Shown here one piece after another: positions 13,268 to 55,300 of a stretch of DNA of 64,000 bases (within the stretch, counting starts at the first letter, position 1; each line of letters begins with the position of its first letter). The notes under the pieces are model-generated. The model worked only from the letters and a program-made list of their open reading frames with translations. It did not search any database and had not been told where the DNA came from. The position numbers were made by a program, and so were the translations under genes. Origin of the DNA: Candidatus Aldehydirespirator sp. (GTDB lineage Bacteria; Actinomycetota; Acidimicrobiia; Acidimicrobiales; Aldehydirespiratoraceae). Location: positions 907,601 through 971,600 of the forward strand of contig OZ244872.1 of NCBI GenBank assembly GCA_965221215.1, given 5' to 3'.

Positions 13268-14035
13268 CTCGTTCCCCTGACCCGGCTCGCTGCTGTCGGC
13301 CCATTGGGTGGTCATGGTTCCGAAGGCTCGGTGGAAGGCGAGCATGGTTTCTTCGCAGTGGGATCCGGGGCCGCAGTGGGGGATGCCTGCTGGGCGGAAG
13401 AAGTAGGTGCCCGGCCCGGCCGTGACCATCTTGTCGGCCTCTTGCATGACGATCTCGCCTTCTATCACGAAGCATTCTTCGTGGTACCGGTGCTGGTGCG
13501 GGCTGTGGTCGCCGTGGTTCCAGCCTCGGGCGCCGCTTAGCCACACGTCGCCGACCGGGCCTCGGCCCAGGGGCTTGATGTGGCGGCCCGGCATCTCTGG
13601 GACGGGGATCCACTCCGTCTCTGCGGCCCGGCCCGGTGCCAGCTCGGCTGGCGGACCGGCAAACGTCGGGTCGTATCGCACCGGCGCCGATGTCATCAGC
13701 AGGGCCGCGCCGTCGGCGGCGACCTGCAGCGGGGGGACGTTCCGGCCCATGGGCAGATGCACGTAGTCGCCGGCCTCCAGGGTGTGCGGTCCGGCCTCGA
13801 CCGAGCCCTGGATCACGAACAGCTCCACCTCGGCGTCGAACGCGCCCCGCGCCCTCGGCCCCCAGCCTGCCCGAAGGCGCACAAGCCGGGTGCTCGAACC
13901 CTTCAGGTCGGTCGACAGGATGCGGGCCTCGAGGGCGCCGTCGATGCCGGGGATGGTCATCGATCGCACCGGCAGGGAGGCGTCGTGGATCCCGGCCAGA
14001 TGGGTGATCGTGCGATCGACTAGCGCCGGATCCAT
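13238..14035 (-). CDS. Cupin domain-containing protein (bicupin-like)
   Basis: 265 aa. It has two cupin-like segments, including HQHRYHEECFVIEGEI...GTYFFRPAGIPHGP-type motifs. It has a 30-nt convergent overlap with the E1 gene end. Confidence 0.7.
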   Translation of the reverse strand: MDPALVDRTITHLAGIHDASLPVRSMTIPGIDGALEARILSTDLKGSSTRLVRLRAGWGPRARGAFDAEVELFVIQGSVEAGPHTLEAGDYVHLPMGRNVPPLQVAADGAALLMTSAPVRYDPTFAGPPAELAPGRAAETEWIPVPEMPGRHIKPLGRGPVGDVWLSGARGWNHGDHSPHQHRYHEECFVIEGEIVMQEADKMVTAGPGTYFFRPAGIPHCGPGSHCEETMLAFHRAFGTMTTQWADSSEPGQGNELGQDGVHCG

Positions 14036-38106: not shown

Positions 38107-38892
38107 TCAGAAGAAGACCTGCTCGCCGCCGGTGAGGTTGAGGCTGGCACCGGTCGTGTAGCAGGCGTCGTCGGAGGCGAGGAACGCAGCCATGGCGCCG
38201 ATGTCGGTGGCCGTCCCGAGCCGCTTCAGGGGGATGGTCTCGATGTGCTCGGCCAGCAACTCGTCACGGTCGCGGTCCGCCGAGGCCGCGGCGGCGCCGA
38301 ATCCGGTCTTGGTCATGTTGGTGAACATGGTGCCGGGGCAGATGGCGTTGACGGTGATGTTGTGCTCAGCCAGTTCCTTGGCCAGCACCTGGGTGAGCCC
38401 GACCACCGCGAACTTGGAGGCCGAGTAGATCCCCCATCCCTGCCAGGCCACCTTGCCCGTCTGCGACGCTGTGTTGATGATCCGCCCCCAGCTGTGCCGC
38501 TTCATGATGTGGGCGGCGGCACGCGAGCAGGCCAGCACGCCCCGGACGTTCACCGTGAAGACCTTCTCGTACACCTCGTCGGGGGTGTCGATGACTGCGC
38601 CTATGGGCTGGGCGACGCCGGCGTTGTTGGCCAGGATGTCAAGCCGGCCGTAGGCGTCGGCCACCGCGCGCATCTGCTCTTCGACCTGGGCCGTGTCGGT
38701 CACGTCGAGGTGTATGGCCATGGGCTGGGCCCCCGACGGCGCGGCGGGCAGCGACGCGGCCACTTCGGAGGAGTCGAGCACGTCGGCGCACACCACCGCG
38801 GCCCCCTCGTCGGCGAACCGCCGAGCGATGCCCTCGCCCAGTCCTCGGGACGCGCCGGTCACCAGTGCGATCTTGTCGTCTAGCCGACCCAT
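38107..38892 (-). CDS. SDR family oxidoreductase
   Basis: Start ATG 38892 is preceded by AAGGGGGA. Motifs: TGASRGLG, NNAG and YSASK. The track ORF's extra 48 N-terminal codons cross the intergenic repeats and are rejected. Confidence 0.9.
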   Translation of the reverse strand: MGRLDDKIALVTGASRGLGEGIARRFADEGAAVVCADVLDSSEVAASLPAAPSGAQPMAIHLDVTDTAQVEEQMRAVADAYGRLDILANNAGVAQPIGAVIDTPDEVYEKVFTVNVRGVLACSRAAAHIMKRHSWGRIINTASQTGKVAWQGWGIYSASKFAVVGLTQVLAKELAEHNITVNAICPGTMFTNMTKTGFGAAAASADRDRDELLAEHIETIPLKRLGTATDIGAMAAFLASDDACYTTGASLNLTGGEQVFF

Positions 38893-38968
38893 TCCCGGTC
38901 CCCCTTGCTTGCAGCGAAGCGGACCGCACACTACATCACGGTGCCGATCCGGCAAATTGCCGAGCTTC

Positions 38969-39057
38969 GATGTGCAAATGAGGCAGCCACAAGGGTGTGA
39001 ACGAGATAGTCGAGCATGTGGAAATGAGATGGTCACAGATGTGAAAACGAGATGGGG
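38969..39057 (+). repeat. Four imperfect direct repeats, about 16 bp each at 21-25 bp spacing (iteron/operator-like)
   Basis: TGTGCAAATGAGGCAG (38971), TGTGAACGAGATAG (38996), TGTGGAAATGAGATGG (39017) and TGTGAAAACGAGATGG (39040). All four are in the same orientation in the intergenic region. Confidence 0.75.
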
Positions 39058-39078
39058 ACGCCCGATTTGCGGCCTGAC

Positions 39079-39103
39079 GGGGGGGGGGGGGGGGGGGGGG
39101 GGG
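39079..39103 (+). repeat. Uninterrupted homopolymer G25 (C25 on the minus strand)
   Basis: Counted directly: g at 39079-39103, flanked by ...cctgac and caaaact... Confidence 0.95.
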
Positions 39104-39173
39104 CAAAACTGCGAAGAAACTAAAAATAACGAAAAAGCACTCTAAGGTATTGAGATGAACTAGAATCGGAGGA
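39104..39173 (+). promoter_or_regulatory. AT-rich island with a candidate -10 (TAGAAT 39161-39166) immediately upstream of the ATPase start
   Basis: Hand count gives 25 G+C in 70 nt. TAGAAT ends 7 nt before the A of ATG 39174, geometry compatible with a leaderless or near-leaderless transcript. GGAGG at 39168-39172 is only 1 nt from the ATG. Confidence 0.4.
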
Positions 39174-40277
39174 ATGCCGAAACACCCCTCGGTGAATCCG
39201 TTCTCCCCCACGTTCGGTGCCACGCCCCCTCTGCTGGCGGGGCGTGACCGGATTCTCGACCGCTTCTCCGAGGCGTTGGACACCGGCCCCAACCACCCGG
39301 ACTACACGCTGCTGCTCATCGGCGACGGCGGCACCGGCAAGACGGCTCTGCTCAACGTGCTCGAGGAGCAGGCCGCCGACCGCGGCTGGGCAGTGATCAC
39401 CGCGGCGGCGTCGGCAGAGCCCGTGGCCAAGCGGATCACCGCCGAAGCCCTCAGGCATCTCGATCAGGCCGACGGCGACCGCGCCGAGCGCATCGGTGAG
39501 ACCGAGGACCTCGCATCGTCGGAGTCGTGCTCGCCGTGCAGCCTGCTGACTGCTCTGGGCGAGCTCGGTGCGGTCATGGCCGACAGCGGCAAGGGGCTGC
39601 TGGTGACCGTCGACGAACTCCACGCCACCGATCGCGACGACGTCCGCAACATCGAGGCTGCGATCCAGATCGTCACCCGCCGCCGGCAGATGCCGGTGGC
39701 GTTCGTGGCGGCGGCGCTTCCGGTGGTGGAGGACACCCACCTCGATGACTCCCACGCGACGTTCCTCGAGCGCTGCTCCCGCTTTCGCCTGGGCCCGCTC
39801 GACCCCGATGAGACTCGGCGGGCCCTGCGAGAGCCGATCATCAAGTGCGGCAGCGCCATCGACGACGACGCGCTCGACGCGGCCGCCGACGTCACCCGCG
39901 GGCATCCGTACATGGTGCAACTCGTCGGCTTCCACTCCTGGCAGATGCGCGAAGACCCCGGCACGCCGATCAGCGTCACCCACGCCAGCGCCGGGGCCCT
40001 CGAAGCCGAGGCGGCCATGGTGGACCAGATAGCCAGGCCGATCTGGAAGCGGCTCTCTCCGATGGACCGGCGCTTCCTGGTGGCGATGCTGCCCGGCAAC
40101 CCCGACTCGTCGCTGGCCGACGTGGCCACGAGGTTGGGGCGCTCGGTGCAGTACGCCCGCGTCTACCGGCGCCGGCTGGTGGCCGCGGGCGCGATCAGCC
40201 CGTCGGAGAACGGCCGGGTTCGTTTCTTGCACCAGGCGGTGCGGGTGCGGGCCGAGGCGGCCCAGAGGCAGCAGTGA
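39174..40277 (+). CDS. Orphan AAA+ ATPase with C-terminal winged-helix (ORC/Cdc6- or Arch_ATPase-like, STAND-type)
   Basis: 367 aa. The N-terminus is NPFSPTFGATPPLLAGRDRILDRF, Walker A is LLLIGDGGTGKTALL, and Walker B is GLLVTVDELH. The C-terminal LSPMDRRFLVAMLPGNPDSSLADVATRLGRSVQYARVYRRRLVAAGAI is a wHTH-like pattern. Confidence 0.8.
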   Translation: MPKHPSVNPFSPTFGATPPLLAGRDRILDRFSEALDTGPNHPDYTLLLIGDGGTGKTALLNVLEEQAADRGWAVITAAASAEPVAKRITAEALRHLDQADGDRAERIGETEDLASSESCSPCSLLTALGELGAVMADSGKGLLVTVDELHATDRDDVRNIEAAIQIVTRRRQMPVAFVAAALPVVEDTHLDDSHATFLERCSRFRLGPLDPDETRRALREPIIKCGSAIDDDALDAAADVTRGHPYMVQLVGFHSWQMREDPGTPISVTHASAGALEAEAAMVDQIARPIWKRLSPMDRRFLVAMLPGNPDSSLADVATRLGRSVQYARVYRRRLVAAGAISPSENGRVRFLHQAVRVRAEAAQRQQ

Positions 40278-40332
40278 TGGCAGAGACAGCAGTGCTGAAT
40301 GGTCGGAAGTGCTTGATGCATGCAAAGGAGGA

Positions 40333-43300
40333 ATGGTCTTGCAGTTCTTGAGACGGCGTACAAGTGGGTGGCTCTGCGCCCTGCGGCGCGACGGCGGGCC
40401 CGACTGTTTGCAGAGCCCCCCAAACGTTCGCAGGCTGGTGGCGGTGCTGACCGTGGCGCTGGTCGCGTCGCTGCTGGCGGCGGCGCCGGTGCCGTTGTTG
40501 TCGGATGCGGGAGCGCCGCTAGCGCCGGCTGAGGCTGAGGCGCAGCAGGTCACCTCGCCGGCGGTTCTCAACAGGGTCTCGATCATCGAGGGCCAGACAC
40601 GCATCTTTCGGATCTCCAACGTGACGTCGCGCCCCAGCTATTACGTGCATGCCAGCGTCGCGGGCTCCTTCAGCGCCGAGGCGAGCGACGTCACGATCAC
40701 CACGGACAACCTGCGCGGCCAGGCACAGACGATCACCCCCGACACCGACGCGCCGCGCGCCTACCGAGACTCCATCCACAGCACCATCGGCTTCGAGGTC
40801 ACCGCGAACGAGGACAGCGACGGCACCGGCGAAGAGACGTTCGGGGTGCGGCTGTGCACCACCGCTGACTGTCAGAGCGGCACGGTCCTCGGCGAGTGGG
40901 AGGTGGCCATCACCGAGCCCGGTTCGGACACCGTGCTCACCGGCACGGGCGCGACCGTCACCATCCCTGGCGGCAGCGCGCTCAGCGTCATGGAGGACTC
41001 CCGCAACGGCGACGGCCGCGACCGGCGCGCCACGTTCACCATCGCTCTTGACTCGGCGCCGACCGAGGACATCGTGATCGTCGGCCAGGTGGACACCACG
41101 GCTGCCAACGGAGACGGCGTTGCCACATCGATTGCGCGCATCAACGCGGCGCGCTCTCCCGACGAGGAACCGTCGACCACGGCGCGCTATGTGGCTGCCA
41201 GGTTCTCCAACATGGTCACGGTCACCGACCCCGGGAACCCGAATGCCGATCCGCCCGTGCCCCCGTCCCAGACGACTCGGGCACCGACGGCTGACGAGCT
41301 CGCCACACAGGTCAGCGTTGTCGCGTTCGACAACGCGGTCGACACCGCAGGCGGGACGCTGAGCGGCGATCTCACGTTCACCGTCTACAAGGACAACGAT
41401 CGCTTCCGCGGCACCGGCGCCGACGTCGACGGGAACGGCGATCCCATTCTTGGCAACGCCGAGACGTACCCCGGCATTGTCATCCCCAGCGTGCCGATCA
41501 GGGTCACCGATGACGACGAGCCGACGAGGATCCGGCTGCTGCCCACCAGTCCCGCGGACAACACCGCGACGGAGGGCAACACCGACAAGGCCACGGTCCT
41601 GGTGAAGCTCGACCGTGCGCTGGCCGCGGGCGAGGAGGTCACCGCGACGCTGTTCTTCAGCGGCGCCACGTTGGGCACGCACTTCTCGATGGCGGCGGCG
41701 AGCGGGCAGACCGGCGTGACCTACGCCGACTCCGACGACGGAACAAAGGGGCTCGTCACCCTCACCGGTGCGGGCGTTCAGCAGGGTGTGATCGAGGTCA
41801 CCGCGCTCACCGACAGCGACTCTGACAACCAGGCGCTGCAGATCGGGATGCCGCCGACTGACCAACCCTGGCAGAGGAACTATCACCGCTCGAGCCTCGC
41901 CGGCGGGGTCTGCGCCGCGCACGGCTGCCCGAACCGTCCACAGGGCGACCCCGGCCAGCGCTTCCAGTCGGTCACCCTCGCCGAGTCGGCGGCGGGCCTC
42001 ACAATCATCGAGTCCGATGACCCCGACGCCCGCTGGGTGGTCGAGGGCAACGACTACAGCTACAGCGTCCGGTTGAAGGCGCAGCCGTCGATCGATGTGA
42101 CCGTGGCCACATCGATCGCGTCGGGCGGATCGGTGCAGGCCGGGGCGACGCTCACGTTCACCAACAGCGACTGGGCGATGCCGCAGACGGTGACGGTGCG
42201 TCCCACCGACAACGATCTGGACGAGACGCGGCGGACGCTGACGGTGACCCACGCCTTCAGCGGCGACGCCACGTATGCCGCCCTCGCGGATGTCGCGCAC
42301 GAAATCGGCGTGCTCGATGACGACCCGACCACCATCAACATGGCTGGCGCGGGCGTGAACACCGACGGAACCTCTACCAACATGTCGAAGATCATGGTGG
42401 AGGGCGACGCCAGCCGCGTTGACCGCAGCCTCACTATCGAATTGGGCCGCGCTCTGGTTGAGGACGAGTATGTGCGCGTCCCGCTGCGGGTTGAGGCCGT
42501 CGCCAACGGCAACAATCCGGAGCTCCCGGACGATCCGCCCGACCAAGACGAAGATGACGACCCGCTGCCGAGCGACCTCGACCCGCGGCGCACGGTGGTG
42601 GACAGCTTCCGCGGGCCGCGCGCCAGCGCCAATGTGGCCTGGCCGCCGTATCACAACGATGTCGTGATGACTGCCACCGGCACCGGTGTGACCTATGAGC
42701 ACTCCAACCGCCACACCCCCAATCACATCGGTTTCCGCTATATCGAGTTCCGCGGCGCGGGCGCGCAGACCGCGACGATCGTGGTGCACGCCCGCGGCGG
42801 CTTCGACGACGGCGAGAGCTACGACGAGGCGTTCGCGGTCACCTTCCCCAACGACTTCTACGTCTTCGATGAGGACACCGGCCAGCCGGTCAGCAGCACG
42901 CCGGTGCAGGGCAACCTCGGCGGCGGCCTCGAAGCGCAACCGACCGGCTTGGAGGCCTGGTACGGCATCGCCGACGACGACAAGATCGCAGCGGCGCAGA
43001 CCACCGAGGTGGCCAACAGCTGGTCGGCGAAGCCTCCCAGCTTGAGCGACGGCGCCGAGTTCCGGCTGCTGTATGTCACCAGCGGAACCAGAAACGCCAG
43101 CGAGGACGGCTACGCCACCTACAACAATTTTGTGCGTGCCGAGATCACCGGCAACCAGCTCACACAGGGCGGAGTGCCGGACCTGGTGCCGTACGCCACC
43201 AAATTCGCCGCGGTGATCAGCACCAACTCCTCTCAGGGCGTCCGTGGAGGCAACGCCTCCCTCAACGCCAACCTGGAAGACCCGAGCAACGACGCTGCCA

Positions 43301-46300
43301 TCTACTGGGTGGGCGGAACCAAAGTCGCCGACAACACCGCCGACTTCCTCGACGGCACCTGGGACGACGAGGCCAACCCCACCCGCGCCGACGGCACCGC
43401 GGCCACGATCAGCACGGCCGGCTACTGGACCGGCTCGGAGGCCGACGGCCAGCGCGCCGACAGCTGCAGCGGCCTGACGGGATCTGATCGGCATCTGCGA
43501 GCGGGCGCGACCAATGTCGGCTACGGGCTGCTCAACGACAACGGACGCGGGCCGCTGGGCCAAGCCGTGGACGAGACGAGCTGCCAACCCGCGCCCAACA
43601 GCGAGCGGCGGCCGCTGTATGCGCTGTCCACCGAAGCGTTCACCATCTCCGGCGGCGCCGCCATCGAGCCCGCCGCCACCGCCGCGGAGGGCAGCGCCGT
43701 CACCTTCGCCGTCACCATCACCACAGCCGCGCCCTCCGGCGGGATCACCATCCCCTACACCCTCGCCGACGGACGCGGCTACGACAACGACCCCGCCAAC
43801 ATCATCGCCACCAGCACCGACTACACCGACGCCGCCAGTGGCAGCATCGTGATCGCCCAGGGCGACACGACCGGCACCATCACCGTCAACACCACACAAG
43901 ACAGCACATACGAGAGCGACCACTACTTCACCGTCACCCTCGGTACGCCCACAGGCACCGACGCGCCCCAGGTGCAAGCCCTCAAGGGCACCGCCATCGG
44001 CACGATCACCGACGCCGACGACGCGCCCACCATCGAGTTCGCCCCCGCAACAGCTACAGCCGCCGAAGGCGACGGCACCGTGGATGTCACCGTCACCAAG
44101 ACCGGTGCCACGCTGCTGCCCGCGTCGGTGTACTGGACCACCGCCGACGACACCGCGTCACACCCCGACGACTACACCGCCAACGCCGGCTACCTCCAAT
44201 TCGCCCCCGGCGAAACATCCAAGACCATCACCATCGGCATCGTGGCGGACGGCGCCTCCGAGAGCGCCGAGACATTCAAGGTGCAACTCGACGCGCAGCA
44301 GATCGTCGACGCCCAGATCGGCAGTGCATCTGAGGCGACGGTCACGGTGAACGACGACGGGACCAGCGTCTCGGTGCCGAATGTGCAGTTCACCTCGGCG
44401 ACGCAGGCGGTGACCGAGGCCGCTACCACGCTCACCGTCACGGTCGAGGCGGACGCTGCGGCGCCGGCCAACACGGATGTGGCCTTCACGGTGGGCGGCG
44501 ACGCCACAGCCAGCTCGGACTACACCGCTCCCAGCAGCCCGGTCACCATCCTCGCTGGTCAACGCCGCACCACCATCAGCGTCCCGATCCTGCAGGACAG
44601 CGCAAGCGAGAGCCCCGAGACCATCGTGCTGACGCTGATCGACGGCACGGACTACAACCTCGGCTCGCAGACCACCCACACCATCACCATCAACGACGAC
44701 GATTCGTCGCCGATTGTGGAGTTCGCCTCCGCCGCCTCCAAGGGCAGCGAGGGCAACTCCGCCGTGGTCACCGTCGAGGCTTCCCGCCCGGTGGCACAGA
44801 ACACGGCCGTGACCTACACCAGCACCGGGGGGACGGCGACATCCGGCGACGACTACACCGCGCCCGGCGGCACCGTCACCATCCCGAGCGGCCAGAGCAC
44901 CGCTGCCATCACCATTCCCCTGACCGCGGACAGCATGGACGACTCCGGCGAGACCATCGTGCTGACTCTGACCGACGGCACGGACTACGACCTCGGCTCG
45001 CAGACCACCCACACCGTCACCATCTCGGAGGTGGGGTTCATCTTCACGCAGGAGCGCGTCTTCGTGACCGAGGGCGGTTCGGCGGTGCGCTACGGCATCT
45101 CTCTCACCGACGACCCCTCCGGCCTCAATACGGCGCTGCCCGCGTGCGACTACATTCTCGGCACCGACGAGGACAATCCGGTCGACCTGCCGCGCTGCAC
45201 CCCCGACCAGGATCCCGTCTTCGCCCGGGTCATCGTCACCTCGCCGGTCGCGCCCGCTCCGCCGGCGGCCAACCCCAACCCGTTCGAGGTGCTGACCAGC
45301 GGCAACGACCTGCTCCCCACGCTGCGATTCACCCGCCGCAACTTCCACATCCCGCAGTACTTCACCGTCTACCCGCTACAGGACGACGACCCCGACAGCG
45401 AGCAGAACGTGCGCATCACCCACGAGGTCCGCGGCGCTACGGACGATTCCGCCGACTTCCGCGACGACTCGCCCTATGCCACCGGCGGCAGCGTCAATGG
45501 CGTCGACACCGGCCTCGCAGTGCCCGACATGCCCGCCTACGTCTCCGACGACGACGCCGGTCACAAGGAGGGGCTGACGCTGCGACTTCTTGACAAAGAC
45601 CCCGACCTCCCGATCGTCATCCAGGAGGGCAACAAGACCGGCAGGTTCAATCTGGAGTGGCGCGGCCCCACCCTGGGCGGGGATGACGAAGTGGCGGCGC
45701 GTCTGCGTATCACCGGCGGCACGTACGGCAAGGACTACATCGTCGATGCGGAGAGCACCTCTAGTCCAAGGGTCACCTTCGAGCTGCCTATCGACGACGA
45801 ATCCACAATGGATGTGGACGAGTCACACGTCGAGAACGCGGAGATCATCATTCGATGGTTGGCCCCGTTCGGGCGTGTTCCTAGTGCCCAATTCAGAGTC
45901 GTGTCTCTCAGTGACGGCAAGGCGAAGAGCGGTGAACGCCACCTGGGTGTCCATCTTCTGAATGCATGGTCGCCAGACGATTCCGCCAACAAAGACAACG
46001 ACACCCCCGACGGTGTCCGCTTGGAGAACGGTCCCCAGACCAAGCGCATCCATGTCCTCTCCCGTGACCGGATAGTCGTTCGACAGACCGGTACGGAGGA
46101 TGGCTTGAAGTTCGAAGGTTTGGAGACCTCCGGCAGCGATGCCGAGCTCACGACCAACGGCGCGTGGGCGGCCGTTGATGAGGACGGGAGCACGGAACAC
46201 AAGCTCGCATTTGAGATGAGCAGTTGTGTCTTGCCCCGTACTAGCGCCGTGGTGACCGTCAGCACGAGCGACAGCTCCAAGCTGCGCGTCCATGCCAGCG

Positions 46301-49300
46301 ACGACATTGATGGCGTCGTCGACACGCTTACGTGGGGGCCGAACAACAACCCAGAAGGCCGCTGCGGTGAGGTTCACACCGTCAGCTTCATCGCGGATGA
46401 GGACGACGACTCCGACGACGAGGTGGTGGAGGTCTACGTCACCCTAACGAGCGGATATGGGAACGCTTACGTTGACGGCACTGTTGTGCGGACGTTCGAG
46501 GTGCGCATCACCGACGACGACGTGCCCGCAGGCGTGACGGTCTTCCCCACGGCCATTACGGTGCGCGAGGGCGCGAAGAAGGGCGCGAAAGTGGGCGAAG
46601 GCGACCCGCGTGAACGCACCAACCAGGTCGCCTTCAAACTGAACACCGACCCGGGCAGCGGCAACACGGTGCTGATCAACACCCGCGGCGGCGGAATGGC
46701 TGTCCAGAGGGACAAGAGCCAGCACCCCATGGAGTTCACCGGCGGCGAGTCCGGCACCTGGGACACATGGCAGTTTGTTGACATCACCGCGATGGACGAC
46801 AATGACAACGCCGACGACGCAGAAACCGTCAAATGGAGCGTGACAGGCACAGGCGATTACGGGAGCGTGCGCGACCTCAGTGTGGAGGTCACCATCATCG
46901 ACGATGATCCCGCCGTGCGCATCTCCAGGGAAACCATCACGATGGCTGAGCCCCATGTCGAGTCCAGCAGGGCGACAGGGTGGACTTATGAGGTTGTGCT
47001 CAACGTGAAGCCCCACAATGGGATCGTCCATGTTGTGCCCGCCACCGGCGATACCACGGCCGTGAGCTTCGGCAAAAATGACGATGGTCCGATCCTCACC
47101 CACAGGGGCCTGGACTTCACCCCCGAGAACTGGGACGCGCCGCAGACCGTAACCATCTTCCCGTTGGCTGACGGCGACTCCGACGACGAGACCGTCACCA
47201 TCACGCACTCCATCTCCAGCCAGGTCACCCGCACCATCACGAACGAGGATGGAACACCAGCGCAAGTTGGAGCGGCGCGCAACTACCGGCGTGTGTCTGT
47301 GCCGTCTATCGAGGTGAGCGTGCTGGACTCCGACCGCGCCGAGGGGATCGTGGTCGAGCCGGATGCGTTCGTGTCAGAGGGGGGCAGCGGCGGGTTCCCT
47401 GTGCGGCTGGCCGCGCCCGATGCCGTCAGTTTGGTTGTGACGGGCACCCACAGCGGTGTCGTCGTCGACACCGATCCCAGCCTCGACGGAGAGCAGCGGA
47501 CGCTGGTGTTCACTGAGGAGAACTGGTATGAGCCCCAGGCTGTCTTTTTGACGGCCGAGCAGGAGAGCGATAGCAGCGACACCGACGACGGCGTGTTCGA
47601 TTTGACTTTGACCGCCTGGACCGCTGGCGCGCCCGCCGAGGTGGGTCAACCGCCGAATCCTCCGGTGCTTGCCTCGGCCTATGGGACGGCGCCGGTGCGG
47701 GTGCATGTGTACGACGACGAGTTCGCGGGCGGGTCGACGTTCACCGTGACTGGGTCGAGCACGGTTACTGAGGGTGCCGCTCCCGCCATCTTCACCGTGC
47801 AAGCAGACACCGCGTCGTCCGTCGCGGTCGATGTGACGCTGCACATCTCAGAGACCGGCGATTTCGTCGCCGGCGGCGATGAGGGAGACCAGACCGTCGC
47901 CTTCAGCGGCGGCTCCGCCGTCCAGAACCACCAGGTCCCCATCGTCGACGACAATCTGCAGGAGTCTGACGGGACGATCATTGCGGAGCTCAAGCCGGGC
48001 AGCGGCTACCGGATCGGATCGCCGTCGCGGGCGTCTGTCGGCGTCACCGACGACGGCGACACCGGCACCGCGGCGCCGGTACGCATCACGATGGCGGTGG
48101 CCGACGGCGACACGTCCACGGGCGATGTAGTTGAGGGCGCGGGCGACTCCACGGGCTACAAGACGGTCACGTTGACGCTGGATCGGGCCCTGACCAGCGG
48201 CGAGACGGTCACCGTGCCCCTGACGGTCTCGGGCGCAGCGGTGACAACGGATTACACCTTCGGCCTGCACGGCTCCGGGAACACTGGCGTCACGCTGGCC
48301 ACGAGCGGGTCGTATAGCGCACAGAACCCGGCGGTGCAGTTCGCCAGCGGTGCGAGGGTCGCGACGCTGCGGTTCACGCCTGTAAACAACGACGACCGCA
48401 CGCAGCCCGCGATCGATATCCGCATCGGGACGGTCGAGGCGTCGGCCGGCATCACCCACACGACGGCCGGTTCGCCCGTCGGCTTCTTGATCCGCGACGA
48501 CGAGATGGGCGTGATCGAGGTGCCCCGCACCTGGGCGCTCAAGCCCTCGGGGGTGGGCGCCGGCGGGGAGTTCCGGCTGCTGTTCATCACGTCGGAGACG
48601 AGGACGGCCGAGTCGACCGACATCGAGGCATACAACGATTGGGCGCAGGGCGTGGCGGCGCGCAACGGGCATGTCTCCCTGAAGCCCTACGGCGGTTTGC
48701 TCAAGGTGGTCGGCAGCACCGAGTCGGTGAACGCCCGCGTGAACACGGGCATGTGGGATCCGAACACGAGCGGGTTCGTGGACGGCTCCACGGGCAGGTC
48801 CTCTTCTGGCGTTCGGGTCTATTGGCTGGCTCCGGCGTCAGCGGCGAAGGTGGCCGACAGCTACTTCGAGTTCTTCAGCCATCCCTGGGACGGCGGCACC
48901 CATCAGGACACTCGCGACACGCTTGAGTCCGGCATCGCGCGGGACAGCGGCAGCGCGATCTGGACCGGTTCGAACACGAACGGCACGGCTCACTCGGCGC
49001 CGCTCGGAGGCAACGCGCAGAACTGGGTGCGCACGGGCCATGCAATGACCGCGGGCGGTGCTACTACCAACTTGTCTCGAGACAGGGCCACCAAGACCGG
49101 CACCCTGCCCCTCTATGTGATGTCGCCGGTGTTCCGGGTGGAGGGCGCCGAGGCCGAGTTGAGCATCTCTGGCGGGACGGTGGCAGAGGGCGGCACGCTG
49201 ACGGTGACTGTTGATCTCAGCGCGGCGGCGCCGTCGGTGCTGAACATCCCAGTGCAGATGCGCACGAGCGGCAACCCGACTGCGTCGTCAGCCGATTTCT

Positions 49301-52300
49301 CGCTGTCGAACAGCGGCAATGTGGCTATCGCTATGGGCGCCACATCGGGCACCCTGACGTTCACCGCTGAAGACGACATGATCGATGAGGACTCCGAGAC
49401 GCTGACTCTGGAGTTCGGGACGCTGCCCGACGGCGTGATCGCGGGCACGACCTCCAGCGTCGGTGTGACGATCACCGACAACGACACTGCGGGTGTGACC
49501 GTTGCTGAGACGTCGGGCGGTACGACAGTGTCGGAGGACGGCTCGACTACGACTGACACGTACACGGTGGTGTTGGATACTGAGCCGTTGAACAATGTGG
49601 TGGTGACGGTTACTGCGCCGGCGGGGACGCAGGTCAGCACCGACAGCGGCTCGACATGGCACTCGTCGCGAAACCTCACGTTCAACCCGTCGGGGTCGGG
49701 GATCTGGTCGTCGCCGCAGACGGTGACGGTGCGCGGCCAGAACGACGACATCGACAATGCCGGCGATGAGCGCACGATCAGTGTCACGCATGCGATCACC
49801 GATGGTGACGGCAGCAAGTACACCACGTCGACGCCGAGCATCGCGGCGGTGTCGGTGACGGTGACCGACAATGACACGGCCGGAGTGACGGTGGTGCAGT
49901 CGGGAGGGAACACGGTTGTCGCTGAGAACGGCGGCACGGACACGTACACGGTGGCGTTGGACACGCAGCCGCTCTCGAACGTGGTGGTCACGCTCACGAG
50001 CGGCGCGTCGACGGCGGCGTTGTTGAGCGGGGGAGGGCAGACGAATCAGGGCACGGTGACGCTGACCTTCACGCCGACCAGTTGGGGCGCGCAGACGGTG
50101 ACCGTGCGGGGCGTGAACGACGCCATCGACAACGCCAACGACCGCCGAACGGTGACGATCACCCAGTCGGTCACGACGGGCGACACGAACGGCAAGTACA
50201 CCACCAGCACCAACGTGGCGAACGTGAGCGTGAGGGTCAACGACGACGGCGACACGGCGGCGGTGACTGTCACTCCGAGCGGCGGCACAACGACCGTGAC
50301 CGAGGACGGCAGCGACACCGACGATTACACGGTAGTGCTGGACACGCAGCCGCTGAGCAGTGTGACGATCACGGCCACGGCGCCGGCGGGGGCGCAGGTC
50401 AGCGACGACGGCGGCACGTCGTGGGGGTCGTCGGTGGATCTGACGTTCACGTCGGGCACGTCGGGCAACTGGGGCACGGCCCAGACGGTGACCGTGCGGG
50501 GCACGCAGGACATCATTGACAATCCGGGCGACCAGCGCAGCATCACCATCACCCACGCGATCACTTCTGGCAACGGCGACGGGAGCCGCTACACGCCGTC
50601 GACGCCGTCGAAGCCGAGCGTGGCGGTGAGGGTGAACGACGACGACCCGAAGCCGACACAGATCACCTTGACCACGAACCGCAACACTGCGGTGTCGGAG
50701 GGCACGGCGTCGACCATGGTGACGGTTACCGCGACAGTGCAGGGCCCGACGCGCTTCGGCGCCGACAAGACGGTGGCGGTGAGCGTCGACGCCAGCGCCG
50801 ACGTTAATGGCGGCGCCAACTATGTGGACATGACCGCGGTGGCTGATTTCAACATCACGATCCCGGCGGGCGATCGGACTGCGACAGGGATGTTCACCAT
50901 CACGCCGGACAACGACATGGTGGACGAGTCCGACAACAGCATTGCGGTGACCGGCAGCGTGTCGGGGGACTCGGCGGTGACGGTGAACCCGGCGACGCCG
51001 ATCATGCTGAGGGACAACGACAATGCGCCGACAGTGGTGAATCTGAGTGTGACGCCGAACTCGATCAGCGAGAACGGCGGCGCTCGGAGCATCTCGGTGA
51101 CCGCGACAGTGCAGGGCTCGACCCGGTTCGGGACAGACAAGACGGTGGCGGTGTCGGTGGCGGGCCACAACGCGGCGGGCGCGGTGGGGTTCACCCAGGT
51201 GTCGACGTTCAGTGTGGTGATCTCCGCGGAGCAGCAGACGTCGTCGGGCAGCGACAGTTTCACGCTGACTCCCGACAACAACATCTGGAACGAACAGGAC
51301 GGCTCGGCGGTGCTCAGCGGCACGTTGTCGGGGGTGACGGTCAACGGTGCGAGCGTGACGTTGACCAACGACGATGCCGAGCCGCCGGGGGTGACCCTGT
51401 CGGTGAGCGACGAGATGATCGGCGAGGCCGACGGGGCTCAGACGATAACGGTGACCGCGACGGTGCAGGGCGCGACGCGCTATGGCACGGCGCGCACGGT
51501 GAACGTGAGCGTGGCAGCTTCAGGCAACGCGGATGCGGTGGACTTCACCGCTTCGACGCCGATGGCGATCATGCTGGCGCCGGGTGACCGCACCGCAACG
51601 ACGACGTTCACGCTGACGCCGACCGCCGACAGTGTGGACGAGTTCGACGAGACGATCACGGTGTCGGGCACGGGAGCGGACATCGCGGCGTTCACCGATG
51701 CGTCGATCACGCTGGCCGACGACGACGCGACCACCCTCACGATGACTGCGCCCGCGGGTGCGGTGGCTGAGAGCGGCGGCACCACCGACGTGACGCTGAC
51801 GCTGAGCCGGGCGCTGGTGGACGGCGAGTCGGTGACGGTGCCGCTGGATGTGGTGGGAGCGGCGGCAAGATCCGATTACACGCTGGGGTTGCAGCCGTCG
51901 TCGCAGACTGGTGTGGCGCTGTCTGTATCGGGCTCTGACAGCGTCCAGGCGCCCAAGGTGACTCTGACCACCGGCGCTGAGACCGCGGTGATGCGGTTCA
52001 CCGCGGTTGATGACAGCACCCGCACCCAGCCGTATGTGCTGGTGCGCTACGGCACCGGGGCCCGGGCGCCGTCGGGCGCGGGCGTGGATTTCGCGGCGCC
52101 GGCGGATGGGCCGGTGGGCTGGGTGATCACCGACAACGAGACCGGCGACATTGTGGTGCCGCAGTCTTGGGCGCTGTCGCCCAGCGGTGTGCAGAATCAG
52201 GGCGAGCCGAGGTTCCGGCTGGTGTTCGTGTCGTCGGCGAAGCGCGACGCCTCCTCCACAGACATCGCCGAATATGACGCGTTCATCCGCGGCCTGCTCG

Positions 52301-55300
52301 CGCAGGGGCACACTGCGGTTGTTCCCTATGCGGGGTTCTTCACCGTTGTGGGGTCCACCTCGGGCGTGCATCTGAGGGACCACGCGAACGTGGCGGGATC
52401 TGCGACGATGCCGTTCTATTGGCTGGGCGAGACCGGAGACACCACCAAGCGGGTCGCGGTGGACAACAGCCAGTTCCGCGGCGAGTGGATCGACACCGAG
52501 ACGCCGTCTTCGCAGAGCGTGCCCCGCAACGAGTCCGGCGCCGTGGTGTCGGTCGACAGCAACGGCTATTTCACCGGATCCACCGCCGCGGGGGCGCGGT
52601 CGGCCAATCCGCTGGGCTCGACGAACGTCACGGTCGGCTATCTCAACGACAGCGGCAGCGGCCGGGCGCCGCTGGGCAGCGGCCAGACGGTCGCCAACAC
52701 CGCCACGCGCAGCTTCTACGGGCTGTCGCCGGTGTTCGTGAGGGCCAGCGACCCTGTCGTCTCGGTGACCACATCGCAGACGTCGGTGGCTGAGGGCACC
52801 GCTTTGAGCTTCACCGTGAGCGCCGACCCCGCGCCGCCCAACGCGATAACAGTGCGGTTGTGGGTCTCGCAGAACTCCGGGCGCGACATGGTGCCCGTCG
52901 TCGGGGAGCAGATGGTGGCGTTCGCGGCGGGCGACACCTCCAAGACGCTCACGGTGGCCACTGCCGGCGACAACAGCGACGAGGCCGACGCCGAGGTGTC
53001 GGCGAGAGTGTTGAACAACGCCGGCTACACGGTGAGCGCCACCGCCGCCGAGGCGTCGGTGACAGTCACCGACAACGACGCCATGACCGTGTCGGTGTCT
53101 GGCGGCGGCGGAAGCGTGAGCGAGGGATCGAGCCGCGACTACACCGTCGATCCGGGCCGCAGCCTGTTGTCGGGTGAGACGGTGACGGTGAACTTCGCTC
53201 CGGCGGGCAGCGCCACCCGGGGCTCGGACTACACGATCACCTGCCACGGCACAGGCGTGACCTGCGCGGGCCTGGGCGGCACCACACCGAGCTTGACCAT
53301 CACTGGCGGCAGCGGCGTGCGCAACGCCACCATCCGCATCAACGCCCAGAACGACATGGTGCATCCCGAGTCCGGCGAGACCGCCGGGATCAGCCTGCGC
53401 TCAGGGCATGCCAGCACAGGCTCGGGCGGCACGTTCTCGGTGAGCGGCTCACCGTCGACGTTCACCATTGCGAGCACCGCCCCCGCCGCGATCACCGCGT
53501 CGTTCGATTTGGCCGCCTACGGGGTGGGGGAGGCGGCGGGTGCCCGCTCGGTGCCGGTGACGCTCTCGCGGGTTGCGCCCTCGGGTGGGCTGGTTGTGTC
53601 CTACACCACCGGCGGAGATGCGGTCTCGGGCGACGACTACAGCGGCGCGGGCGGCACGGTGACCGTCGCGGCGGGCCAGACCTCAGCGAGCATCTCTTTC
53701 ACGGTCATCGACGATGTATTGGCTGAGGGCGCTGAGACCTTGACGTTCACCCTCACCGACGGCGCGAACTACGACCTGGGGTCGCCGAGCCAGACCACGA
53801 TCACGATCAACGACAACGACATCGCCCCCTCCAGCATCACTTTGGGCGTTGACGACAACAGTGTGAACGAGGCCGACGGCGCGACGACGGTCACCGTGAC
53901 TGCCACCGTCAGCGGTTCGACACGCTTCGCGGAGTCCAAGACGGTGGCGGTGACGGTGGCGGGGTCGGGTGCCGCCAACACGGTGGGGTTCACTGCGAAC
54001 CCGTCGATGTTCAACATCACCATCGCCGCTGGCGCGCAGACCGGGACCGGCATGTTCACGCTGACCCCCACCGACAACAGCGTCGACGAGAACAACGAGA
54101 CGGTCACAGTGTCGGGAGCGCTGTCGGGGGTCACGGTGAACTCTGCGACGATCACCCTCATAGACGACGACACGACCGTGGCGACGCCGGTCACGGTCAC
54201 CTTGTCGGCGCCGGCGGGCGACGTCACCGAGGGCGCTAGCGGCGCCGCCGGACGCAAGGACGTCACGATCACCCTGGGTCGAGCGCTGGCCGGCACTGAG
54301 ACAATCACGGTGCCGCTGGAGGTGTTCGGCGCCACCGTCGCCACCGACTACAGCTTCGGGCTGCAGCCCGCCACCCAGGCCGGGGTGGCGCTTCTCACTT
54401 CGAACCCGTACAGCGCTCAGCATCCGGCGGTGCGCCTGTCGGCGGGAGCGTCGAGCGCGGTGCTGCGGTTCATGCCGGTGAACAACAGCGTGCGCACCCA
54501 GCCTCTTGTGACGATCAACAGGAACTCCAGTCATCAGACCACCGGTGGGGGCGGCGCGACGTTGGGGGCGGTGTCGGGCGGCCCGTTCAAGTTCTTGGTC
54601 ATCGACGACGAGACCGGCGATATCACCGTGCCGAGCAGTTGGGCGCTGGCCCCGTCGGGGCTGTCGGCGGGCGACGACTTCCGGCTGCTGTTCCGCTCCT
54701 CGACGACCCGCGACGCCACATCGTCGAACATCGCGGACTACGACTTCTTTGTGCGCGACGTGGTGGCGTTGGGCGGCCATAGCGCGGCGCTGCCCTATGC
54801 GGGGTTCTTCAAGGCGTTCGCGTCGACCCGCAGCGCCTCGGGCTCGACGGGCACCACCGCCCGGGTGCACAACAACATGGCCTCGGGCCACACCGGTCAC
54901 TTCAGCGGCGCGAACGACGTGTGGGCCGACGGATCCACCGTCCCCAACGCAGGCAACACGACGGGGACGCCGATCTATTGGCTAAACGGCGCCAAGCTCG
55001 CCAACAACTACGCCGACCTGTGCGACCAAGCCTTGAAGTCGGGCAGCGGGGTCACCACCGGCTGGGATCTCGACGACCCCCGCAGCGAGGACGGAAACCG
55101 CAACATTGCGGCGGGAACGAACCCCGGTCAGACCCATCAGGCATGGACCGGCACCGGCAACGCCTGCGAGGCCTACAACCACCCCCTCGGCGGCGACAAC
55201 AACGGCGACGTCTCGCGTGCCGCCAGCCACGACACGACCTGGGCGTTCATGCACCAGGCCCAAAACGCTCGATCACAGCAGCGGCCCCTCTATGGCATGT

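Follow-up and report, generated by a model that had tools for sequence, protein, structure and literature searches.

A species-specific 23-bp tandem repeat array between divergent promoters of Candidatus Aldehydirespirator sp., tentatively read as a docking strip for a winged-helix AAA+ ATPase

Iteron plasmids (RK2 with TrfA, P1 and pPS10 with RepA, F with RepE) carry four to five same-orientation repeats of 17-22 bp at a phasing of ~22-23 bp. These repeats adjoin an A/T-rich stretch and the gene for a winged-helix Rep protein, and Rep proteins autoregulate through the repeats in their own promoters. Clusters of DnaA boxes are also known outside oriC, namely at datA, at DARS and in the dnaA promoter. 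Here we describe an array of four direct repeats (38969-39060, the TGTG array) in a 64,000-nt stretch of Candidatus Aldehydirespirator sp. DNA (Acidimicrobiia; GenBank assembly GCA_965221215.1, contig OZ244872.1, positions 907,601-971,600 of the forward strand). This whole stretch is called the window, and positions are those of the window unless the genome is named. The array resembles plasmid iterons in being a set of phased same-orientation repeats beside an A/T-rich stretch and the gene of a winged-helix protein. It differs from them in that this neighbour is an AAA+ ATPase and not a Rep_3/RepA protein, that the setting is chromosomal and syntenic, that there is no skew signal, and that the repeats are missing from the sister species.

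Similar comparisons can be drawn with the two other described systems. As at the archaeal Orc1/Cdc6 proteins with their origin recognition boxes (ORB; structures 2qby, 2v1u and 1w5t), repeats and an A/T-rich stretch lie near the gene of an ATPase whose predicted fold matches, and the bipartite array unit (GTG and GAGATGG, ~10 bp apart) would suit combined contacts by a winged helix and an AAA+ module. However, the host is a bacterium, the ATPase belongs to a multi-copy family, the units lie in one orientation on one side, and the family's own repeats are 18 bp long and A-rich. With DnaA-box clusters the array shares several same-orientation 9-mers close to TTWTNCACA within ~90 bp, but these 9-mers do not match the TCCACA-core boxes of this organism and they are not conserved.

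Four units in the same orientation, with TGTG at 38971, 38996, 39017 and 39040 (spacings of 25, 21 and 23 bp), had been described in an earlier reading made from the sequence only, and we confirmed them. When anchored on GAG (38980, 39003, 39026 and 39049), their register over 38969-39060 is exactly 23/23/23 bp, and the core GTGnnAAyGAGAtrG is on the plus strand in all four units, which are as follows.

38969-38991, plus strand: array unit 1, GATGTGCAAATGAGGCAGCCACA, with GAG at 38980 and two mismatches to TGTGNAAAYGAGATRG
38992-39014, plus strand: array unit 2, AGGGTGTGAACGAGATAGTCGAG, with GAG at 39003, its length still 23 nt
39015-39037, plus strand: array unit 3, CATGTGGAAATGAGATGGTCACA, with GAG at 39026, an exact consensus match
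39038-39060, plus strand: array unit 4, GATGTGAAAACGAGATGGGGACG, with GAG at 39049, an exact consensus match

The TGTG half of unit 2 is displaced by 2 nt, and this shift is compensated inside the unit. The consensus TGTGNAAAYGAGATGG has two exact matches and two with three mismatches in the array and none elsewhere in the window. Tandem Repeats Finder gives a period of 23, 2.4 copies and a score of 68 for the array, and a repeat search detects a 46-bp super-unit in which 38 nt are duplicated at 74% identity. Any two units are identical at 11-17 of their 23 positions, i.e., they are 26-52% divergent, and the array is thus not a fresh duplication. Several other identities were tried and rejected. 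A coding repeat was rejected because the period of 23 is not a multiple of three, and the open reading frames (ORFs) overlapping the array are spurious. A structured RNA was rejected as well: the folding energy is no better than that of shuffled sequences (z of 0.18 and 0.59 on the two strands), and Rfam has no match to the array at E <=1 on either strand. By inspection, units 1 and 3 contain TGTGn-N11-nCACA, a spacing that is wrong for a CRP/FNR-type site.

The 23-bp register recurs in this genome, in excess of comparable periods. A genome-wide run of Tandem Repeats Finder returned 14 arrays with a period of 23, 13 of them low in GC, as against five with a period of 22, six with 20, three with 19, none with 25 and two with 26 (only neighbouring periods not divisible by three are compared). 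Of the 15 low-GC arrays with a period of 22 or 23, ten stand some 150 nt or less (9-152 nt) ahead of a gene that encodes an orphan winged-helix P-loop ATPase. Nine of these ten precede genes of the DUF4143+AAA_14 (COG1373) type, and the tenth is the array in the window. Since genes of these kinds make up ~26 of roughly 3200, the association has a binomial P of ~4e-15. The genome has 20 DUF4143 genes, and short low-GC repeats, direct or inverted, mark the promoters of most of the remaining ones; elsewhere in the genus and the order, too, genomes have 23-bp arrays ahead of DUF4143 genes. DUF4143 is listed, without a known function, among the families with a PD-(D/E)XK nuclease fold (PMC3424549). 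We found no paper on DNA sites or 23-bp promoter arrays of DUF4143 or COG1373 proteins, and no functional study of them. The DUF4143-associated arrays are given here in genome coordinates.

162352, 189293, 508436, 569894, 674259, 981387, 3037527 and 3065801: 23-bp arrays associated with DUF4143 genes, 2.3-4.3 units each, with a different sequence at every locus

One of them, at 981387-981468, is shared by two divergent DUF4143 genes that start at ~981363 (minus strand) and ~981620 (plus strand).

All seven of the DUF4143 arrays tested against the sister species align there at ~71-96% identity with their cores intact, and three of the seven pairs are unequal in copy number, by one 23-bp unit exactly (four versus five units at 508436, one more in the sister species at 674259, one fewer at 3065801). 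The combination of conserved cores with gain and loss of whole units indicates that these DUF4143 arrays behave as functional, dynamic arrays. The core CAATCTGTA, whose home is the array at 674259, has four extra copies (508400, 682969, 191582 and 191606), which adjoin two other arrays and are close to a third DUF4143 gene; genome-wide, eight copies are seen and ~4 are expected by chance. Since these cores sit beside other arrays, binding in trans is plausible, and their distribution hints at cross-talk between paralogues. The TGTG array has in common with the DUF4143 arrays the exact 23-bp register, the three to five head-to-tail units of low GC and the locus-private sequence. It differs from them in that they lie 9-152 nt from a DUF4143 start and are conserved in the sister species, neither of which holds for the TGTG array.

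Five arrays of period 22 or 23 in the genome are solo arrays, with no ATPase gene alongside, and it is to this solo group that the TGTG array belongs. The solo array at 682896 is 90% conserved in the sister species. Another, at 13721-13792, consists of 3.1 units followed by a CTGTAGCAT box and no gene, and it is carried by an insert of ~210 nt between convergent genes. That insert is species-specific and missing from the sister species, and it has the look of either what is left of the 5' end of a lost ATPase gene or a mobile piece of small size.

Taken together, the TGTG array has the architecture of the docking arrays of winged-helix AAA+ ATPases in this lineage, and for this reason the best single reading is that it is a lineage-specific, operator-like docking strip for an oligomerising ATPase of that kind. 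We hold this reading tentatively, at a probability of about 0.45. It is supported by the exact 23/23/23 register, which has been kept despite the divergence of the units, by the predicted ORC2/Cdc6- and PAB2304-like fold of the adjacent protein, by the substitutions that separate this protein from its sister-species orthologue in the beta2-beta3 insertion and the wing, and by a conserved partial unit with TGAGATG that lies directly before the -10 box of the ATPase gene. In the proposed mechanism, an ATPase oligomer would sit head to tail on the array with one protomer or one dimer per unit, the register of 23 bp being a little over two helical turns. Candidate binders are the adjacent ORC/Cdc6-like ATPase and any of the 20 DUF4143 ATPase-nucleases. 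The adjacent protein is an improbable binder on the evidence given below, and a DUF4143 paralogue or some other protein would account for the remaining cases. Occupancy would modulate one or both of the divergent promoters, i.e., that of the short-chain dehydrogenase (SDR) operon and that of the ATPase and giant-adhesin genes. From its place against the SDR -35, the array would be expected to act on the SDR promoter, and a further effect on the ATPase/adhesin promoter ~100 bp away, across a tract of 25 G (G25), may also be possible. Protein binding, the identity of the binder and the regulatory effect are what we infer.

The layout reported in the sequence-only reading was borne out by our analysis: the SDR start (38892, minus strand) is followed by the array, the G25 tract (39079-39103), an A-rich island and the ATG of the ATPase gene (39174). 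The features around the array are these.

38107-38892, minus strand: short-chain dehydrogenase (SDR), first gene of the divergent operon
38928-38955, minus strand: candidate promoter of the SDR operon (TTGCCG, 16 nt, TAGTGT), inferred from sequence, in a segment ~80% conserved in the sister species
39061-39103, plus strand: remainder of the species-specific segment, an 18-nt spacer and G25 (39079-39103)
39105-39140, plus strand: a pair of A-rich repeats of the kind particular to the ATPase family, ACTGCGAAGAAACTA at 39108 and ATAACGAAAAAGCAC at 39126, 18 bp apart, kept in the sister species
39148-39158, plus strand: partial fifth copy, TATTGAGATGA, with the TGAGATG common to units 3 and 4, just upstream of the -10, kept in the sister species
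39161-39166, plus strand: -10-like box TAGAAT (putative), 7 nt before the ATG of a leaderless-type start, with TAnnnT in the same place in paralogues
39174-40277, plus strand: AAA+ ATPase of 367 aa with a C-terminal winged helix (Pfam AAA_16 / nSTAND1), its fold like that of PAB2304 and archaeal ORC2/Cdc6
40309-56748, plus strand: ORF of 5479 aa for a Calx-beta surface protein, directly after the ATPase gene, a pairing also found in the sister species

Unit 1 begins 13 nt upstream of the candidate SDR -35, and the end of the array is ~100 bp from the -10 box of the ATPase/giant-adhesin promoter. A strict scan of 38700-39400 for sigma-70 promoters and terminators returned none, and the -10 and -35 boxes named here are candidates of the TAnnnT type. 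Among the ORFs scanned at the far end of the SDR operon there was no dedicated regulator gene beside the operon. A perfect 11-bp palindrome (GGCAAATTGCC, 38950-38962) overlaps the candidate SDR -35 and is not conserved in the sister species.

Several results weigh against a docking strip, those from relatives among them. Among the results that would refute its operator or origin proposal, the sequence-only reading had named a lack of conservation in orthologous intergenic regions, and the array is indeed absent from these. The sister species (genome G006) has an ATPase that is 95% identical and shares both the SDR neighbour and the giant gene. The intergenic segments 38893-38968 and 39104-39173 are ~80% identical between the two species, and the segment in between (38969-39103, i.e., array, spacer and G25) faces ~80 unrelated bases in the sister genome. 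Local as well as global alignment scores for the array segment fall within those of shuffled sequences, and homology of the two segments was therefore rejected. Wider searches gave the same picture: a BLAST search with the array in 38 genomes of the genus found nothing below an E of 0.05, the two-core pattern in 400 genomes of the order had chance matches of the coding type only, the two-unit pattern in 185,579 GTDB species representatives had one chance match (in a Bacteroidota genome), and the JGI metagenomes contained no match. Closer strains were looked for too, with no record of the exact protein and no relative in the JGI metagenomes; the next relative below the one at 95% identity stands at 65%. 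Names of homologues put the organism with sponge-associated Acidimicrobiia. Judged by these sequence comparisons, the array is private to one species.

The motif is also rare within the genome itself. In the genome-wide search that the sequence-only reading had suggested, the exact 16-mer pattern was confined to the array in the whole 3.37-Mb genome. Allowing at most two mismatches to TGTGNAAAYGAGATRG gives seven sites in 6.7 million positions, four of which are the array units, and the 8-mer TGTGNAWA occurs 61 times in the genome with its sole cluster at the array. This rarity counts against the docking strip, in that no second genomic site of the array motif exists and the motif consequently defines no regulon. 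In addition, the conserved columns of the units cluster no more than under column permutation (P ~0.5), so that no selection on a core can be read from the four units; a pattern of 'conserved core, free spacer' was dropped on this account. Finally, the array has no adjacent DUF4143 gene, the nearest ones being elsewhere in the genome, and it is not placed against the -10 of an ATPase gene in the way that cognate arrays are.

The adjacent ATPase was examined through its structure and its family. The proposal that it is a winged-helix ATPase was upheld, since its model (AlphaFold, built with 11 relatives, mean pLDDT (predicted local distance difference test) of 85.5) has an AAA+ domain and a C-terminal winged helix in an ORC/Cdc6-like predicted fold. 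Foldseek matches this model over its full length, including the winged helix, to PAB2304 of Pyrococcus (2qen), ORC2 (1w5t) and Cdc6 (2qby) with an E of ~4e-11, the match to ORC2 and Cdc6 being one of fold only and not of orthology. Genomes of the genus have 2-17 copies of this family. Of 25 members collected with their upstream DNA, nearly all have A-rich sequence repeated directly in that DNA, up to a TAnnnT box that closely precedes the start codon. These repeats are of the AAAGCTCGCAAAAGA or the AAAGCGAAAAGACGAAT type in 2-6 copies, with cores GCGAAAAG, CGCAAAG or GCTCGCAAA, and same-genome examples are found at 2041686-2041746 and 1205752-1205806 (genome coordinates). For the 18 family arrays detected, which come from many genomes and two metagenome contigs, Tandem Repeats Finder gives a period of 18 in 14 cases, 36 in one and 19 in one; the window holds the sole case with a period of 23 among the 18 (Fisher P of ~5e-4 against the DUF4143 set), which counts against the docking strip as far as this ATPase is its reader. 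We found no paper on 18-bp promoter repeats of the ORC-like AAA_16 family. A family member in genome G009 (L017, 60% identical) has a C12 tract at 1312-1323, ~120 nt upstream of its start and at the distal edge of the A-rich repeats, which echoes the position of G25 in the window on the opposite strand.

Both the TGTG array and the family's 18-bp repeats consist of direct repeats ahead of genes of one and the same family, and the window has two of the 18-bp units (39105-39140). They differ in register (18 versus 23 bp), in core (GCGAAAAG or CGCAAAG versus GTG..AAyGAGATGG) and in position (at the -10 versus ~100 bp upstream). A motif model trained only on orthologues from other genomes gives 12.5 bits to the second proximal unit, which ranks 25 of 6.7 million positions, and <=6.6 bits to the TGTG units, a score equalled or exceeded at ~1500 genome positions. 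This too speaks against a docking strip for the neighbour, and a resemblance of the TGTG units to the operator of the ATPase family was rejected on this basis. The recognition helix (Y-R-x-R-L) is invariant across the family and identical in both sister species. Given this shared helix and the conserved 18-bp pair, the cognate site of the ATPase is most simply the 18-bp pair and not the 23-bp array. In ORC-type proteins the DNA-contacting insert sits at the beta2-beta3 insertion. Between the two sister ATPases there are 17 substitutions. Eight are located at residues 78-126, in the helical insertion that separates beta2 from beta3, and two in the wing (R348G and Q354H); residues 78-126 are a region that is poorly conserved anyway and partly of low confidence in the model.

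Two rival explanations draw on this same evidence. One is that the array is a functionless relic, either a slippage duplication of 23 bp and then 46 bp in a hypervariable spacer or the leftover promoter of a lost ATPase gene. The absence of conservation, of a second site and of any statistical sign of a protected core makes such a functionless duplication or relic almost as likely as a docking strip, and we regard it as possible though doubtful. The array is private to one species and lies in the only part of an otherwise conserved intergenic region that cannot be aligned, a 46-bp super-unit is detected in it, its conserved columns are not clustered (P ~0.5), and it has neither a cognate gene nor a second site. 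Arrays of this lineage are seen to gain and lose whole units, and the solo array at 13721 provides an example of a species-specific insert of ~210 nt with a promoter-like box and no gene. Against a relic, the register is still exactly 23 bp at a divergence of 26-52%, with a compensated 2-nt shift in unit 2; the period is that of the functional arrays in the genome and not a random length, and the sister species has kept another of the solo arrays. The other explanation is that the array is a distal extension of the adjacent ATPase's own operator; the ATPase would bind the four units in addition to its promoter-proximal sites, loop or polymerise across G25, and autoregulate the ATPase/adhesin operon. 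The sequence-only reading had likewise considered an operator for this neighbour, and of that idea the fit of the fold stands, and with it a plausibility in kind, though the idea is not the one that fits best. A distal extension agrees with the adjacency and orientation of the array, the AAA+ and winged-helix predicted fold, the TGAGATG partial unit near the ATPase -10 that is kept in the sister species, the clustering of the sister substitutions in the beta2-beta3 insertion and the wing, and the presence of distal repeats in another family member (L019). We nevertheless consider it unlikely, because 14 of the family's 18 arrays have a register of 18 bp and the only period-23 case is in the window (Fisher P ~5e-4), the core GCGAAAAG/CGCAAAG is not in the units, which score <=6.6 bits against 12.5 for the proximal unit, and the sister species combines the same recognition helix in its ATPase with the lack of an array. 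A more elaborate possibility, which we rate as a long shot, is that solo 23-bp arrays are portable docking strips that wire host promoters (here those of a catabolic operon and a 16-kb surface-adhesin gene) into a multi-copy network of DUF4143 and ORC-like ATPases. The hypermutable G25 would then set the helical phase of the array relative to the 18-bp operator, and changes in its length would switch long-range cooperation on or off.

Replication-based explanations fare worse. The iteron- or ORB-type origin, active or relic, that the sequence-only reading had entertained with the ORC-like ATPase as its initiator would have a superficially classic layout, with direct repeats of ~22 bp, an A/T-rich island and an initiator-like AAA+ winged-helix neighbour. 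The four units in exact 23-bp register do agree with the iteron pattern of at least three direct repeats at ~22-bp phasing, and the predicted fold agrees with the ORB pattern of an AAA+ initiator with a C-terminal winged helix. But the repeats are not conserved together with the putative initiator, as the sister ATPase is 95% identical and has no repeats, and the flanking or inverted arrangement of ORB elements is missing, in that the four units share one orientation on one side and the A-rich island is a conserved promoter with 18-bp units of the family type. The dnaA gene (2.933 Mb) and the skew minimum are ~1.4 Mb away from the array. The cumulative GC skew has its minimum at ~2.99 Mb and its maximum at ~1.26 Mb and rises steadily through 0.947 Mb without a local switch, so that the proposed check by GC skew came out against an origin. 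The spacer between rpmH and dnaA has five DnaA boxes with TGTGGA/TCCACA cores (2932796-2933115 of the genome) and an AT-rich stretch. No member of the Rep families (Rep_3/RepA, WH1-WH2) was found at the locus by Pfam, NCBIfam, PHROGs or PADLOC, and the locus lies in ordinary chromosomal DNA that is in synteny with the sister species, in which the repeats are missing. The ATPase family moreover reaches 17 copies per genome, every copy having promoter repeats of its own, and is a poor fit for a dedicated initiator. We found no evidence of a replication function for the locus and consider an origin extremely improbable. Only slightly better placed, and still very unlikely, is a degenerate DnaA-box cluster that would titrate DnaA or put both promoters under DnaA control. 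Units 1, 3 and 4 match the relaxed E. coli box TTWTNCACA, read as its reverse complement TGTGNAWAA, at eight of nine positions in one orientation, and the rarity of TGTGNAWA together with its clustering at the array points the same way. However, the TGTGGA core is present in unit 3 only, as against all five boxes beside dnaA, the conservation of the units extends beyond the 9-mer into GAGATGG, and the cluster is not conserved in relatives. Other same-orientation clusters of TGTGGA within 120 bp occur outside the rpmH-dnaA spacer at genome positions 1437006-1437076 (four copies) and 3298965-3299081 (three copies), and these may be DnaA-box clusters or coding repeats.

On its own, the TGTG array is a small, species-specific feature of putative function, and it matters little; phased direct repeats as docking sites for proteins are a known kind, of which it is one more private member. 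If it does work as a docking strip, it would help explain the control of the giant surface-protein gene. The more interesting result is collateral and consists in the family-specific registers, the whole-unit differences between sister species and the solo arrays. Within these sponge-associated Acidimicrobiia, orphan winged-helix AAA+ ATPases of two families have private promoter repeats in a register that is specific to the family, 18 bp for the ORC-like AAA_16 proteins and 23 bp for the DUF4143 proteins. Should the proteins read these repeats, the register would reflect how the oligomer is arranged on DNA, and, if this is true, the protein-array pairs would be a ready-made system for studying ORC-like DNA recognition in bacteria.

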